The position numbers and the translations under genes are program-made. The notes beneath the pieces were generated by a model. The model was not told where the DNA came from. It searched no databases and saw nothing but the letters and a program-made list of their open reading frames with translations. 64,000 nt of DNA from Candidatus Thorarchaeota archaeon (GTDB taxonomy: Archaea; Asgardarchaeota; Thorarchaeia; Thorarchaeales; Thorarchaeaceae): positions 2,800,021 to 2,864,020 of the forward strand of contig CP070761.1 in assembly GCA_020348985.1 (NCBI GenBank). Direction: 5' to 3'. Positions 31,707-39,393 of the stretch are shown here, one piece after another; the stretch's first letter is position 1; the number at the start of each line of letters is the position of its first letter.

Positions 31707-32285
31707 ATGATGGCGCTTGATTTCGCGAAAGGTATCACTGAGTTCAGATGGCACGGTCGCGGCGGGCAAGGTGTTGTAACATCCAATCAGATGCTTGGCA
31801 AGGCTGCACTTGCCGAGGGAAATTACATTCAGGCTTTTCCAGAGTTTGGACCGGAACGAACCGGAGCCCCCGTTCGAGCCTTCCTGAGAATGAGCAAGAA
31901 TCCTATCCAGATATACGCCCAGGTCTATTCACCAGACGTTGTAATCTGTATAGACCCGACGTTGCTGGACGTGGTCGACCCAACAAGCGGCCTCAAGGAA
32001 GACGGCACTCTTGTTGTCAACACCACGATGAGTCCACAGGAGGTTAGGGACAAGTATGGCTTCAAGACTGGTACTGCTGTCACAGTTGACGCAACCAGAA
32101 TTGCATTGGAGGTTATGGGACGACCATTCTACAACATGCCAACGATGGCGGCGGCCATAGAGGCCACGAAGGTCGTCAAGATAGAGACCGTCATCGACGC
32201 AGTCATGGAGCGATATCCTGGGAAAGTTGGAGAATTGAACAAGACGGCTATTCTGAGAGCCTGTGAGGAGGAGCAAATAGGATGA
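31707..32285 (+). CDS. porG: Pyruvate/2-ketoisovalerate ferredoxin oxidoreductase gamma subunit
   Basis: EFRWHGRGGQG, FGPERTGAP. Confidence 0.92.
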   Translation: MMALDFAKGITEFRWHGRGGQGVVTSNQMLGKAALAEGNYIQAFPEFGPERTGAPVRAFLRMSKNPIQIYAQVYSPDVVICIDPTLLDVVDPTSGLKEDGTLVVNTTMSPQEVRDKYGFKTGTAVTVDATRIALEVMGRPFYNMPTMAAAIEATKVVKIETVIDAVMERYPGKVGELNKTAILRACEEEQIG

Positions 32286-32578
32286 GCGAGAAGTTTGACG
32301 AGATTCCCATGGCAGGGAACATAATCAAGCCAGGAAACGCGGAGGAATACAAGACAGGCGGTTGGCGTGCTGAGAGACCACTCCACACACCAGAGACCTG
32401 TCTGTGGGTGAAGAACGGTAGCTGCGGAAGATGCTGGATCTATTGCCCTGACATGTCTGTGGTTCTTACCGAGAAGGACGGCAAGCACTCCCATCAGTTC
32501 AACTATGACTACTGCAAGGGTTGCGGCATCTGTGCAAATGAATGCCCGACTGACAGTATCAGAATGGAGGGCGAATAG
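32282..32578 (+). CDS. porD: Pyruvate/2-ketoisovalerate ferredoxin oxidoreductase delta subunit
   Basis: YKTGGWR, CWIYCPD, YDYCKGCGICANECP. Confidence 0.92.
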   Translation: MSEKFDEIPMAGNIIKPGNAEEYKTGGWRAERPLHTPETCLWVKNGSCGRCWIYCPDMSVVLTEKDGKHSHQFNYDYCKGCGICANECPTDSIRMEGE

Positions 32579-32579
32579 A

Positions 32580-33755
32580 GTGACAGAGATTGAAGGACTA
32601 ACTGGCGACGCTGCTATTGCACACGCTCTGAAGCAGTGTGATGTAGATGTTCTTGCGATGTATCCAATCACACCTCAGACCATCATTGTTGAGGACTACG
32701 CACGGTTTGTGGCAAACGGCGAAGTAAACACCAAGCTGATTGCAACGGAATCAGAGCATAGCGCCATGTCTGCATGTGTAGGGGCATCAGCGGCAGGTGC
32801 ACGAGTTGCCACAGCGACTGCATCAGCGGGTCTTGCTCTGATGTGGGAGATTCTGTACTGTGCAGCCTCCATGCGAATGCCCATCGTACTGACTATTGCG
32901 AATCGAGCATTGTCGGCACCAATCAACATTCACAATGACTGGAGCGACACCTACGGAGCCAGAGACAGCGGCTTCATCCAGCTGTACTGTCAGAGCTCTC
33001 AGGAGGCATATGACACCACAATCATGGCCTTTCGGATAGGAGAGGACAGCGATGTGCTCCTTCCTGTTATGGTCTGTATTGATGGCTTCATTCTGAGTCA
33101 CAACGTGGAGAGAGTTGAGATGCTTCCGGACGAGAAGGTACAGAAGTTTGTCGGAGTTAGGAAGCACTACCAGAATCTAGATCCTGCCAACCCAATCACG
33201 ATGGGCCCCTTGGCATTAACAGACTACTACTTCGAGTTCAAGGAACAGCAGGACAGAGCCATCAAGCGAGTCCCGGAGGTCTACAAGAAAGTGGAGGCCG
33301 AGTTCAAGAAGATGACCGGCCGCTCCTATGGTATGTTCGAGGAGTACAAGACTGACGATGCAGACATCATCATCTTCACACACAGCACTCCCGGTGGTAC
33401 AGCAAAGGTTGTTGCTGACGCCCTGAGAGAGAAGGGTGAGAAAGTAGGAGTTCTGCGGCTCAAGATGTTCAGACCGTTTCCTGCGAAAGAGGTGGCGGAG
33501 GCGGTGAAGCATGCAAAGGCTGTGGCAGTCTTCGAGAAGTGCATGTCGTTCGGAGCGGCGGGAAATCCTCTTGCCCTCGAACTTCGGACTGCATTGTATG
33601 ACCAAGACACGAAGCCTATGGTGACCAATTTTGTGATAGGTCTGGGAGGAAGAGATGTCCCGCCGAGTACGCTGGTTGAAGGTCTTGAGAAGACGAAGGA
33701 GTACTTGACAAAAGGAGAGGCTCCTCTCTATGAGACACTGGGGGTGCGGAAATAA
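32580..33755 (+). CDS. porA: Pyruvate/2-ketoisovalerate ferredoxin oxidoreductase alpha subunit
   Basis: YPITPQT, ESEHSAMS, NRALSAPINIH, GLGGRD. GTG start at 32580. Confidence 0.92.
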   Translation: MTEIEGLTGDAAIAHALKQCDVDVLAMYPITPQTIIVEDYARFVANGEVNTKLIATESEHSAMSACVGASAAGARVATATASAGLALMWEILYCAASMRMPIVLTIANRALSAPINIHNDWSDTYGARDSGFIQLYCQSSQEAYDTTIMAFRIGEDSDVLLPVMVCIDGFILSHNVERVEMLPDEKVQKFVGVRKHYQNLDPANPITMGPLALTDYYFEFKEQQDRAIKRVPEVYKKVEAEFKKMTGRSYGMFEEYKTDDADIIIFTHSTPGGTAKVVADALREKGEKVGVLRLKMFRPFPAKEVAEAVKHAKAVAVFEKCMSFGAAGNPLALELRTALYDQDTKPMVTNFVIGLGGRDVPPSTLVEGLEKTKEYLTKGEAPLYETLGVRK

Positions 33756-34696
33756 TGGCAATGAAGCTCAAAGACATGATTGCAAAGGATGAGATTCTCA
33801 GCTCCGGTCACAGGATGTGCGCAGGATGCGCCGCGCCGACCGTGGTTAAGCTCATGGGTATGGCTCTGAGAGGACCCACAATAGTCTGCGAAGCGACTGG
33901 ATGCCTTGAGGTTGCAACCACCATCTATCCGTATACAGCGTGGAAGATTCCATGGATACACGTGGCATTCGAGAATGCAGCAGCCGTAGCATCAGGCATA
34001 GTCGAGGGAATAGACGCCATGAGGGAGAAAGGCCGCTGGGAACACGAAACGACCGATGTCATCGCAATCGGAGGAGATGGGGGTACCTTCGACATTGGTT
34101 TTGGTGCCATCAGCGGAGCCTTGGAACGAGGTCACAAGTTCGTATATCTCTGCTACGACAATGGCGCCTATCAGAACACAGGCATCCAGAGATCCGGTGC
34201 GACATTTCCAGGCCAAGAGACTACAACGTCCTGGGCAGGCAAGGTTGAGCCGGGCAAAAGACAACGCAAGAAACCGCTGGCAGAGATTGTTGCGGCCCAC
34301 AAGATTCCCTACGTTGCCACTACAACCCCATACCATCATAGGGACTTCATCCAGAAGTTCCAGAAGGCATTGGAGGCAGATGGCCCGGCTTTCATCCATG
34401 CATACTCTCCCTGCCCGAGAGGTTGGAGAGTTGAATCATCCAAGAGCATGGAGCTGGCCAAGCTTGCTGTCGAAGTAGGTCTACACCCATTGTTTGAGGT
34501 CATTGACGGTGAAGAGTTCATCATGTCAGGCCCAAGTAAACGTCTGAAGGAACTCAAGCCTCTTGATGAATACCTGAAACCTCAGGGACAGTTCAAGCAC
34601 CTCTTCACACCTCAATGGGAGTACTTCCGAAAGGAGATTCAGGAGCAAGTCAATAGAGACTGGGAACTTCTGAAAAAGAAGTGTGGAATTGAGTAG
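33755..34696 (+). CDS. porB: Pyruvate/2-ketoisovalerate ferredoxin oxidoreductase beta subunit
   Basis: GHRMCAGC, TGCLEV, GGDGGTFDIG, DNGAYQNTG, SPCPRGW. Confidence 0.92.
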   Translation: MAMKLKDMIAKDEILSSGHRMCAGCAAPTVVKLMGMALRGPTIVCEATGCLEVATTIYPYTAWKIPWIHVAFENAAAVASGIVEGIDAMREKGRWEHETTDVIAIGGDGGTFDIGFGAISGALERGHKFVYLCYDNGAYQNTGIQRSGATFPGQETTTSWAGKVEPGKRQRKKPLAEIVAAHKIPYVATTTPYHHRDFIQKFQKALEADGPAFIHAYSPCPRGWRVESSKSMELAKLAVEVGLHPLFEVIDGEEFIMSGPSKRLKELKPLDEYLKPQGQFKHLFTPQWEYFRKEIQEQVNRDWELLKKKCGIE

Positions 34697-35832: not shown

Positions 35833-35985
35833 GAATCTGAACATCTGTTGATCAAGCTTGCTTTTCCAACGAAACACTTCGGGCTGAGTGGGGTGCGCGA
35901 TAATCGCATCCCTCAGTCCATGCTATTACCCTTCTGACATAGTCGAGAGGAATATAGGTCTCCGAGACGCCATCTTGTGTGTTAC

Positions 35986-36018
35986 TATATTCATCAGATT
36001 TATATAAACTAGGTTTAT
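35986..36018 (+). promoter_or_regulatory. TATA box overlapped by inverted repeats (putative ArsR operator)
   Basis: TTTATATA at 35999-36006, 21 nt before ATG 36028. Imperfect IR TATATTCATC-A-GATTTATATA (35986-36006) and perfect ATAAAC-TAG-GTTTAT (36004-36018). Confidence 0.55.
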
Positions 36019-36027
36019 CCAAAGACC

Positions 36028-36420
36028 ATGTCTCAGGAGCATGAGGTTCGCCTGGAGAACTTGGAAAAGGTCCACAAAGAGGCCCCTGAAAAAGCGCCGT
36101 CTTGCGCCCCATACACAGCGAGGCGGCAGGTTATCGATGACTTTCTTGATCATTTCCAGGCAGCCGGACCAGACGTGTTCACAGCATCCATCAGGACTGG
36201 TGTTGTTCTCCTTCTTCTAAAACTCGATGCGGCATGCGTCTGCGAGATACAGTGTGCACTGGATGAGCCTCGTCAACCACTGCTTTCACATCATTTGCGA
36301 GAGATGAAGAAAGCAGGATGGTTGAATAGCGAGAGGCGCGGGAGATGGACCTACTACTCTCTGGAAGATAAGAAACGAGAGTCTATGATTCGGCTCATAA
36401 AGTTCCTTGGAGCAGAATAA
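36028..36420 (+). CDS. arsR: ArsR/SmtB family metalloregulator
   Basis: ACVCEIQCAL, QPLLSHHLREMKKAG, ERRGRWTYYSL. Confidence 0.88.
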   Translation: MSQEHEVRLENLEKVHKEAPEKAPSCAPYTARRQVIDDFLDHFQAAGPDVFTASIRTGVVLLLLKLDAACVCEIQCALDEPRQPLLSHHLREMKKAGWLNSERRGRWTYYSLEDKKRESMIRLIKFLGAE

Positions 36421-36422
36421 CA

Positions 36423-38159
36423 ATGGCAGTAGCATACATGGAACGTTTGGAGCGGTTTCCTGAGACATATGACGAGGCCTTTGACGAAGTCCTTGAAGGA
36501 AGAGGAAACCAAATCAGAGAACGCATTCTTGATATGATCAGGCCAGGAATGCGTGTTCTTGATTTGGGCTGTGGTCCCGGCCTCTTGGCAATGGAAGCAG
36601 CTAAGAAAGGAGCAACAGTATTCGGAGTCGACGCGAATCCGAGGATGATTGGTCTCGCGAAGATTAGATCTGCGTCCATGGAAAAACCTCCGAACTTCCT
36701 TCAAGGTGACATTCTGACCTTAGGAGAAGAAATCGATAGGATTGACATCAATACCGTCGATGCTAGCGACCTTCACCAACAGAAGTTTGACCTGGTTGTC
36801 AGCACATTTCTCTTATCAGAGCTCAAGCCAGCTCATCGCAGTGTCTTCATGCACATTGTCAAGACGATGCTCCGTGATGATGGCTTCTTTGCAGTCGCCT
36901 CTGAGACCCTTCCCGCGTCCAGATCTGATAGGAAGGAATTCTGGAGGAATCGAAAGGAAGTAGAGGTCGAATCCGGAAAGCGCCTTCTTCCTCCCGTTAC
37001 TGACTTGGAGAGTCTTGCCACTTCAGTCGGGCTGGTTGTTGATAGCAGTGATAAGTTTGGATCCGAGATCACTTTCATTGTTGGCCGAAAGAACGACTCT
37101 GAAGTTTCCAGTGTGTTTCGAACTAGGTCCAGAGCCTATCTTGGGGCGCGGGCAAGAGCGAGAATATGGATAGACCATACGACAGGAGGATGGCGGGGCA
37201 TTCCAATCGAGCCCGGCCTCTACAAGATTGGTGAACCCACACCAGAAAGTCCGGTAATCGTGACTGCAAACTACGAGTTGACCTACTACACAGTAATGAG
37301 AGCTCTAGACAAAGATCAGATAGATGCGTGGGTGATGGTCTGTGACACCAACGGTATCAACGTTTGGTGTGCGGCCAGAGGAGTCCACTTTGATAGCGAA
37401 GATGTCATCCACATGATCCGTCTAACAGGTTTGTCAGAGATTGTGAGTCACAGAGAGCTGATCCTGCCACAGCTGGCCGCTGCAGGAATGGACCCTACGA
37501 TGATTCACAGAAGAAGCGGATTCAGAGTACGATATGGCCCCGTTAGAATCCAAGACCTATCGAGATGGTTCGAGCTAGAAAAGCCAAGGCCCAAGCCAAG
37601 AGATATGGCCACAATCACATTTAACTTCAGAGAGAGAATGGAACAGACAGTTGCACATATACCATTCCTTTTTGCGGTCCTTCTGTGGAAACCAATGTTC
37701 GCGATACTTGGGATCCTAACATTGGTCAACGTTGGTCTGTTCGTTGGACTGCCATCAGCTTTTGCCACCCTTTATCCTACTACTATGGCTATTCTTCTGC
37801 TAATTGGAGAATTCCTTCTAGCACTATTCGGGAATGCAATTGTTCTAGGCGTGGTTTTTCCGGTCTTGCCTTCGAAGGGTAATTCATTCTGGAGAAGAGG
37901 AATCGGGTTGGCGGCTATTACAATGCCACTTGCGGCGGCCATCATGCTACTTATCGGTGTTCACTGGACCGAGTTTGTGGTATGGGAGGCAGCTCAGTTT
38001 GTAATGGTCACATCTTTGACAATGGACTGGTCAGGAATGACAACAGTGAGCGACCCGAAGGTAATAAGAAGGGAGTATCCGTATATGATATTGACACTCA
38101 AGATTGGTGCTGCCTTCATCATCGGATTCAATATACTTGTAGCACTTATGGGATGGTGA
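36423..38159 (+). CDS. hgcA: Class I SAM methyltransferase fused to an HgcA-like corrinoid membrane protein
   Basis: N-half VLDLGCGPG, DANPRM, FDLVVSTF. C-half PGLYKIGEP..SPVIVTANYELT, DTNGINVWCAARG, HRELILPQLAA, GFRVRYGPVR, about 5 TM helices, SGMTTVSDP.V.RE. Confidence 0.85.
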   Translation: MAVAYMERLERFPETYDEAFDEVLEGRGNQIRERILDMIRPGMRVLDLGCGPGLLAMEAAKKGATVFGVDANPRMIGLAKIRSASMEKPPNFLQGDILTLGEEIDRIDINTVDASDLHQQKFDLVVSTFLLSELKPAHRSVFMHIVKTMLRDDGFFAVASETLPASRSDRKEFWRNRKEVEVESGKRLLPPVTDLESLATSVGLVVDSSDKFGSEITFIVGRKNDSEVSSVFRTRSRAYLGARARARIWIDHTTGGWRGIPIEPGLYKIGEPTPESPVIVTANYELTYYTVMRALDKDQIDAWVMVCDTNGINVWCAARGVHFDSEDVIHMIRLTGLSEIVSHRELILPQLAAAGMDPTMIHRRSGFRVRYGPVRIQDLSRWFELEKPRPKPRDMATITFNFRERMEQTVAHIPFLFAVLLWKPMFAILGILTLVNVGLFVGLPSAFATLYPTTMAILLLIGEFLLALFGNAIVLGVVFPVLPSKGNSFWRRGIGLAAITMPLAAAIMLLIGVHWTEFVVWEAAQFVMVTSLTMDWSGMTTVSDPKVIRREYPYMILTLKIGAAFIIGFNILVALMGW

Positions 38160-38165
38160 TGTGAA

Positions 38166-38495
38166 GTGACAATCGCGGTAGCAGAAACCAAAGAGGGGTT
38201 ACAGTACAATCCCACGCTGTGCAATCGTTGCGGCATTTGCGTTGAAGTGTGTCCGTTTAATGTCTGGGAAATACCAGAGGAAGGCCCAGCAATTCCTGCA
38301 AGATCAGAGGACTGCACGAATTGCACCGCTTGCGCAAAGAATTGTTTGGGTGGCGCCCTATCTGTAACAAACATGGGCTGTGGCTGCGTTTGGAACCAGG
38401 GGGCACAACTTCAGGGCAAATGTTCGGACACAGTCGTAGGAAATTTCTCGCCACAGTCAGATAGTGAAACCGACAGCACTTCTTGTTGTGGATAG
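38166..38495 (+). CDS. hgcB: HgcB-like 2[4Fe-4S] ferredoxin with Cys-rich tail
   Basis: CNRCGICVEVCP and CTNCTACAKNC, then GCGC and terminal SCCG; starts 6 nt after the hgcA-like stop. Confidence 0.82.
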   Translation: MTIAVAETKEGLQYNPTLCNRCGICVEVCPFNVWEIPEEGPAIPARSEDCTNCTACAKNCLGGALSVTNMGCGCVWNQGAQLQGKCSDTVVGNFSPQSDSETDSTSCCG

Positions 38496-38640: not shown

Positions 38641-39393
38641 GTGTTGATGCTTCAAGATGACTCAGGTGAATTGACCCCGGTCAAGCTTGATCCAGCCCTT
38701 GTTTCAAGTGACAACGCAATCATCGTACTTGATGAAATCAATGACACTTGTTGGGTCTTCATTGGGAGGCATGTGAATATGCCGACCCGAATGCATGCTC
38801 TCAGAATGGGCAAGTCAGTGGCGAAGTCTGGATACAAGATTGGCGTCACGACAATAGGAATGGGATCAAGTCGTATCGTCGAGATGCTAGAAAAGGACGA
38901 CAGTGACGCGGATGTTGTAGCAGCCATAGCGGAATTTAGGGATACCCTCTCGGGAAGATGGGCCTTTGACGACAAGGTTCTAGCCTTCCGAGGAGAGGTC
39001 GTGGAAGAACCGATCGCAGGCGCTCCTGAGCCAACACCAGCACCAGAACCCGTGGAAGCATATGAGGAACCAACTCTTGTTGCTGAGACAATCGAAGAGG
39101 AACCAGAGGTTCCAGCTGAGGTGCCTGCTCCGTCCCCAGAGCCAACAGTTACGCTAGGCGAAAAGAAGCTTGCCTACCTACTCTATTCTGCGGTGAAACA
39201 CTCTGACCTGATCTATACGGAGAAATTCGAAAGAGATGGGAAGATGGGCGTGAAAGTAGAAGCACCGGGTACAATGGTAATTGAGGTTATCATGGACGGG
39301 GACGATCTCAAGGTTGATCCAGCAACCTTCGGTGACAGCGAAATGGCTCAGAGTGTAAAATCTGAGTACGAGACTTGGCTAGGAAAGGTTTGA
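38641..39393 (+). CDS. Gelsolin-like domain + Pro/Glu-rich linker + small C-terminal domain
   Basis: IIVLDEINDTCWVFIGR...RMHALRMGKSV resembles a gelsolin repeat; PEPTPAPEP linker. Confidence 0.7.
   Translation: MLMLQDDSGELTPVKLDPALVSSDNAIIVLDEINDTCWVFIGRHVNMPTRMHALRMGKSVAKSGYKIGVTTIGMGSSRIVEMLEKDDSDADVVAAIAEFRDTLSGRWAFDDKVLAFRGEVVEEPIAGAPEPTPAPEPVEAYEEPTLVAETIEEEPEVPAEVPAPSPEPTVTLGEKKLAYLLYSAVKHSDLIYTEKFERDGKMGVKVEAPGTMVIEVIMDGDDLKVDPATFGDSEMAQSVKSEYETWLGKV

Follow-up and report, generated by a model that had tools for sequence, protein, structure and literature searches.

A CpaM-like methyltransferase fused to an HgcA-like corrinoid protein in Thorarchaeota, a candidate metalloid methylase linked to arsR

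Among the CpaM-type loci that we compared, only those with the cap-helix motif NVWCAARG both keep the metal-binding cysteines of HgcB and have ars genes as neighbours. An operon of this type from Candidatus Thorarchaeota is described here. From its sequence, we propose with moderate confidence that it encodes a repressor-controlled, membrane-bound, cobalamin-dependent metalloid methylase, similar to HgcAB and equipped with its own SAM-binding module, a reading which covers the whole chain of steps and takes As or Sb as the physiological acceptor.

Operon structure and domains of the fusion protein

The operon lies in a window of 64,000 nucleotides (the whole stretch of DNA analysed, to which the positions below refer) and is made up of three genes, all on the plus strand: arsR, coding for an ArsR/SmtB-family repressor (36028-36420; 130 aa), the gene for a methyltransferase–corrinoid–membrane fusion (36423-38159; 578 aa) and a 2[4Fe-4S] ferredoxin gene with a GTG start (38166-38495; 109 aa). 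The coordinates of the open reading frames agree with the tight coupling noticed in the preliminary description, with gaps of 2 nt between arsR and the fusion gene and of 6 nt between the fusion and ferredoxin genes, and all the sequence motifs quoted there were found in these frames. A misassembly at the domain junction had been considered there as well. The host genome is one contig of 3.16 Mb, and a homolog search returned about 55 Thorarchaeota proteins matching the fusion over 99-100% of its length with 50-66% identity, as well as a second group from Loki-, Hermod-, Odin- and Hodarchaeota with about 32% identity; the junction is therefore real. When the same fusion was sought across a sample of 400 Asgard genomes, it was confirmed in at least 94 (a lower bound, counted among the genomes fetched), and it was also present in two Chloroflexota. 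Together with the full-length homologs, this recurrence rules out a misassembly.

Pfam places a class I methyltransferase at about aa 40-170 of the fusion and CdhD (PF03599) at aa 262-354. We divide the protein into a CpaM-like class I SAM methyltransferase domain, assigned with model NF043040 and a tree (36423..37100, +; about aa 1-226), an HgcA-like corrinoid-binding domain (37101..37622, +) and a membrane domain of about five helices, predicted from structure and hydropathy (37623..38159, +). In the AlphaFold model (pLDDT 82.6, pTM 0.74), a Rossmann domain and a corrinoid domain are followed by five long C-terminal helices (402-442, 444-478, 489-511, 515-539 and 545-577) in the region where the hydropathy peaks also fall; with Foldseek, this model matched the HgcA model 9a0b best.

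Two neighbours of the operon deserve mention. A pyruvate:ferredoxin oxidoreductase operon (31707-34696) lies 1.3 kb upstream, and directly 5' of arsR in two relatives (loci L043 and L201); it is a possible electron source, or its position may be mere conservation of gene order. On the other side, a 250-aa protein encoded at 38641-39393 has a Pro/Glu-rich linker and no Pfam match.

Relationship to HgcA, HgcB and CpaM

The presumed cobalt ligand of the corrinoid domain is Cys316, within GINVWCAARG at 37353, which aligns with the cobalt ligand of HgcA (Cys93 equivalent) and is invariant in 78 orthologs. The domain scored 207 bits with the HgcAB-like fusion model NF043039 (cut-off 285), 193.8 bits with the HgcA model NF040863 (cut-off 275) and 93.7 bits with the CdhE/AcsC model NF003195 (cut-off 306), falling below all three cut-offs. 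A maximum-likelihood tree built from the corrinoid and membrane domains gave canonical HgcA (100/100), ferredoxin-fused HgcAB-like proteins (100/98) and CdhE (100/100) a clade each and placed the query in a clade of Thor- and Lokiarchaeota (97/84) outside the HgcA and fused-HgcAB clades; the deep order is left open by this tree. Profile scores and tree thus confirm that the corrinoid half is HgcA-like and not CdhE-like, as had been proposed, and rule out a CdhD/E paralog (93.7 bits versus 207 and 194 for the HgcA-type models). It is not HgcA proper, failing the curated cut-off, clade membership and the canonical cap-helix pattern N(V/I)WCA(A/G)GK, in whose place NVWCAARG is invariant in the clade. 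CdhE has a homologous corrinoid domain but neither the cap-helix Cys nor a membrane domain, and stands apart on a long branch; the CdhE gene of the host itself is located elsewhere in the genome. FastTree hinted that canonical HgcA arose from within the CpaM-linked proteins, but the deep forks are open and, by the AU test, a single clade of all CpaM-linked forms is not rejected (p 0.435). Just before the corrinoid domain, 82% of the clade have a Cys at the position of residue 251 of the fusion, which is Asp here; in lokiarchaeal members this Cys may serve as a further metal ligand.

By Pfam (Fer4) and by alignment with canonical HgcB, the ferredoxin (38166..38495, +) is HgcB-like. Its cluster cysteines are Cys19/22/25/29 and Cys50/53/56/60, followed by the motif GCGC with Cys72 and Cys74, the former matching HgcB Cys73 in the alignment, and by a C-terminal CCG with the pair Cys107-Cys108. 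It shares with HgcB the two 4Fe-4S motifs, a Cys about 12 residues further on, a terminal Cys pair and a gene directly after an hgcA-like gene. The HgcB architecture ascribed to it earlier holds for the set of cysteines, with two small corrections: the CC pair is followed by Gly, and the second cluster motif is CTNCTAC and misses the final Pro. As the clade has CTNCTAC or CTECSAC where C(M/I)ECGAC is present in 75 of 75 canonical HgcB, and the HgcB model NF040864 gives 46.6 bits, below its cut-off of 99, the protein is not HgcB proper. HgcA Cys93 and HgcB Cys73 and Cys94/95 have been reported to be important for Hg methylation (PMC7305189). The counterpart of HgcB Cys73 (GCG) was found in 73 of 77 NVWCAARG-type loci and the terminal pair in 70, the extra Cys of GCGC being an addition of these ferredoxins, whereas none of 33 CpaM loci of the other three arrangements (see below) had HgcB-type cysteines.

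Taken side by side with HgcA/HgcB (NF040863, NF040864; Pseudodesulfovibrio mercurii ND132; PDB 9a0b), the system shares the corrinoid domain with its cap-helix Cys, the five-helix membrane domain, a 2[4Fe-4S] ferredoxin encoded downstream that has a residue of the Cys73 type and a pair of Cys at its end and, often, an upstream arsR. It differs in the N-terminal SAM methyltransferase, the AARG cap helix, the second cluster motif and the extra Cys (GCGC), with about 29% identity and a clade of its own.

The methyltransferase domain found its top family in CpaM (NF043040), with 120.8 bits, below the cut-off of 180 and ahead by 70 bits; a fused homolog (P0078) clears this cut-off with 219 bits. 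With the ArsM model NF008823 it reached 28.8 bits (cut-off 263), and in the tree it clusters with CpaM and away from ArsM; its partner is a corrinoid protein of the HgcA type. Its sole Cys is Cys50, in motif I. The low score, the lack of As-binding cysteines and the tree position rule out an ArsM fused to HgcA and, since the As-binding cysteines of ArsM are all absent, arsenite methylation by this domain alone is unlikely. Both are class I SAM methyltransferases in an ars context and possibly lead to the same product, but ArsM uses cysteines of its own to bind As(III) and works without cobalamin.

NCBIfam already defines CpaM in NF043040 and names it as a partner of HgcAB-like proteins. It was fused or adjacent in 118 of 118 non-canonical HgcA-like loci examined, and the subgroups of the methyltransferase tree mirror those of the corrinoid tree. 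Four arrangements of the three modules were seen: all separate, ferredoxin fused, methyltransferase fused (as in this locus) and a triple fusion. CpaM as a general partner of canonical HgcAB is contradicted by its absence near canonical hgcA in all of 81 loci (best score 65 bits, versus 170 or more at CpaM level) and by the finding that, of 50 genomes with canonical hgcA, only 2 have a CpaM above the cut-off; the methyltransferases beside four canonical hgcA loci are ArsM. Systems of CpaM with the NF043039 HgcAB-like fusion protein likewise join this methyltransferase family to a non-canonical HgcA-like protein, and some Asgard triple fusions pass both models. Here, in contrast, it is the methyltransferase that is fused and the ferredoxin that is separate, and NF043039-type proteins have neither the HgcB-type Cys set nor, in 33 loci, an ars neighbour.

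ArsR, its operator-like element and the ars neighbourhood

The repressor scored 55.2 bits with the ArsR model NF033788 (cut-off 55). An alignment of 11 linked ArsRs shows conservation of Cys70-Val-Cys72 in helix 3 and of the N-terminal Cys26; the third Cys ligand of an As(III)-type helix-3 site is not conserved. Cys76 is present in this copy only. A CVC motif with an N-terminal Cys suits As/Sb sensors, and equally CadC-type sensors of Cd, Pb or Bi. Upstream of arsR, a putative 35-bp operator/promoter-like element (35985..36019, +), whose core TTTATATAAA is at once a palindrome and a TATA-box candidate, is kept in 10 Thorarchaeota orthologs. A matrix built without the host genome ranked 35985-36019 first genome-wide with 43.9 bits, ahead of a second site with 37.1 and the next with 15.9; in 8 relatives there was one copy per genome, and the reversed control gave none. 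Such a palindrome upstream of arsR is usually read as a sign of autorepression, and the ArsR control of the operon put forward earlier is backed by this conserved element. An ars regulon could not be found in the relatives with the operator pattern, and scans for sigma-70 promoters and terminators stayed at chance level. The second copy in the host (contig C1:319501-319534, minus), without equivalent in the relatives, precedes a gene for a 396-aa protein resembling old-yellow-enzyme NADH:flavin oxidoreductase.

Gene neighbourhoods were compared within 5 kb of the 77 NVWCAARG-type and the 33 other CpaM loci. With an ArsR profile that was seeded from the NVWCAARG-type loci themselves, and with kin loci that are not independent, CVC-type ArsR was found at 44 of the 77, Acr3 at 25, ArsC at 6 and ArsM at 1, while none of the four was present within 5 kb of any of the 33 others. 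In 5 of 11 genomes with both kinds of locus, ars genes occurred only at the fusion locus, and the reverse was seen in none. The lokiarchaeal acr3 is usually co-oriented with the operon, 0-56 nt upstream, and in some of these loci it is preceded by DUF166. Linkage of Acr3 and ArsC is confined to Lokiarchaeia-type genomes of two families; in Thorarchaeota ArsR alone is linked (7 of 13 loci, plus this locus), with no Acr3 or ArsC within 5 kb of the 13 loci. A recurring nearby transporter for another metal was not found. The leaning towards arsenic expressed in the preliminary description gains weight from Acr3 and ArsC adjoining the orthologs. Since the host genome also has a separate ArsM, two Acr3 and one ArsC elsewhere, a second arsenite methylase would be partly redundant.

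Canonical hgcAB is also known to lie near ars genes (PMC7438021). With the same profiles, ArsR was detected at 13, ArsC at 5, Acr3 at 4 and ArsM at 4 of 80 canonical hgcA loci, and in Chloroflexota and Methanoperedens (loci L088, L089, L099 and L086) canonical hgcA has arsM immediately upstream or in its vicinity.

Proposed reaction, alternatives and related loci

In the reaction that we propose, ArsR would sit on the promoter palindrome until released by a soft metal(loid), and the ferredoxin, by analogy with HgcAB, would reduce the cobamide ligated by Cys316 to Co(I). The CpaM domain, whose SAM-binding motifs are seen, would then take SAM and hand its methyl group to Co(I), a step which we consider probable. 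The methyl group would finally pass to As(III) or Sb(III) bound to Cys72/Cys74 of the ferredoxin and to its terminal Cys pair, and the methylated product or excess arsenite would be exported. The constant linkage of CpaM and the matching subgroups of the two domain trees speak for this scheme. In purified HgcAB, Co(I) takes a methyl group from SAM, yielding methylcobalamin with Cys-thiolate ligation, without any methyltransferase domain (PMC11588087), which speaks for SAM as donor and, at the same time, counts against our reading in that canonical HgcAB does without such a domain. Methylcobalamin-dependent arsenic methylation has a precedent in a side reaction of MtaA (PMC13262295). SAM synthetase, SAH hydrolase and CdhE are encoded in the host genome (86% complete by markers), in which neither CobS nor BtuF-type proteins turned up. 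Besides this, the ars neighbours of canonical hgcAB, the other ars genes of the host and the unchanged As(III) tolerance of ND132 after deletion of hgcAB (10.1101/2022.10.17.512643) count against the proposal.

Among the alternatives, the one that survives best, although unlikely, is that of a functional though divergent mercury methylase, an Asgard HgcAB that has been overlooked and whose ars context reflects shared regulation only, as in canonical hgcAB. Counterparts of all the important cysteines, HgcA Cys93, HgcB Cys73 and Cys94/95, are indeed kept (PMC7305189), the arsR-hgcAB layout is known, and the inactive HgcAB of Pyrococcus (PMC10083202) belongs to the fused proteins, of which those examined here are without these cysteines. 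On the other hand, both curated cut-offs are missed, the cap helix is AARG, the protein falls outside the HgcA clade and its ferredoxin differs from all 75 canonical HgcB in the second cluster motif. We know of no non-canonical HgcA-like member that methylates Hg. As a side activity, Hg methylation would be compatible with a metalloid methylase.

Somewhat less likely still is a reductive Co(I) chemistry on a metalloid species or halocarbon, fed by the ferredoxin, with CpaM only reactivating or protecting the cofactor as in methionine synthase. HgcAB has been reported to dechlorinate CCl4 (preprint 10.64898/2026.04.26.720869), deletion of hgcAB in ND132 increased sensitivity to As(V) and left tolerance to As(III) unchanged (10.1101/2022.10.17.512643), and the pyruvate:ferredoxin oxidoreductase operon upstream, here and in two relatives, would suit this idea. 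Against it, a methylated cobamide returns to Co(I) only with an acceptor, and the conservation of the metal-binding cysteines suggests that a group is transferred to an ion bound by thiols.

It is improbable that the methyltransferase modifies an independent acceptor, a small molecule or a lipid, bound in its own pocket, with the corrinoid half supplying or handling the substrate and no relay from SAM to cobalt. Its fold is akin to ChlM, UbiE and PmtA, methyltransferases of small molecules, tetrapyrroles and phospholipids; in the ortholog alignment, the invariant Ser132-Glu133-Leu134 and Glu161 sit on the presumed acceptor side; and to our knowledge no class I methyltransferase methylates protein-bound Co(I). 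Nevertheless, the linkage to the corrinoid protein is constant, the fusion is repeated and the sister family has SAM as its donor. The same low probability applies to a relay whose physiological acceptor, at least in Thorarchaeota, is another soft element (Bi, Te, Se or Pb): the ArsR site, which resembles CadC-type sites, the thorarchaeal loci without Acr3 or ArsC and the many metal(loid)s methylated by methylcobalamin would agree with it, but the lokiarchaeal sister clade (97/84) sits in acr3 operons and the neighbourhood has no recurrent transporter of a different metal.

What HgcAB does natively has long been asked, and arsenic is suspected, without proof, to be the answer. SAM as the donor, arsR and ars genes near hgcAB, Asgard HgcAB-like members and the name of the CpaM family are already known; the Asgard members appear within the HgcAB-like subtree of an analysis for which the first 327 columns of the alignment, being poorly aligned, had been removed (PMC10083202). 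The fusion had been regarded as a Rosetta-stone clue to the methyl donor of HgcAB-like systems, and it is real, but the clue was largely anticipated by the published SAM donor, the naming of CpaM and the self-sufficiency of HgcAB. In the searchable literature we found neither the fusion, its retention of HgcB cysteines nor its placement in ars operons, although a prior mention is possible, and nothing on CpaM. This lineage offers a compact test system of fusion and ferredoxin, in which donor site, cobalt ligand and metal-binding cysteines can be identified and which occurs in ars operons of many genomes. If it methylates arsenic, it would be a B12-dependent arsenic methylase of a kind of which we found no description; should mercury be its substrate, a methylation gene discarded by curated HgcA cut-offs and motif filters is present in about a quarter of Asgard species. 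A bolder idea, which we regard as rather doubtful, is that this widespread lineage is a dedicated cobalamin-dependent arsenic methyltransferase beside ArsM which keeps the ancestral job of the HgcAB family, the canonical mercury methylases then being descendants of a CpaM-assisted metalloid methylase that lost the SAM-binding module.

Several related loci were noticed in the course of the comparison. In a second version of the system in the host genome (host contig about 1074326-1076180, minus; L034:6327-8181), the modules are fully split: a CpaM-like gene stands with a gene for a corrinoid-membrane protein (NVWCGSRG) and one for a short ferredoxin that lacks the extra cysteines, and genes resembling those of heterodisulfide reductase are close by. 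Two Asgard families have proteins of 589-655 aa in which CpaM, the corrinoid-membrane domain and the ferredoxin are all joined (L035-L039, L251, L256 and L264), and bacterial methyltransferase-corrinoid fusions in Anaerolineae and Abyssubacteria lie on other branches of the tree (L164, L171; P0252, P0253). At L013:3260-3971 and in more than 20 lokiarchaeal loci, the ferredoxin gene is followed by two small genes without Pfam match, for a CAC-motif thioredoxin-like and a ubiquitin/MoaD-like protein. HgcA-like matches were found in 202 of the 400 Asgard genomes, with only one above the HgcA cut-off; the only canonical hgcAB in this sample (L053, G060:C110) is about 77% identical to Anaerolineales HgcA, which suggests acquisition by transfer. 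In locus L188, just upstream of 6068, arsR has shrunk to a remnant of 16 codons joining its first and last residues while the promoter element is kept, and this operon may have become constitutive through the loss of arsR.
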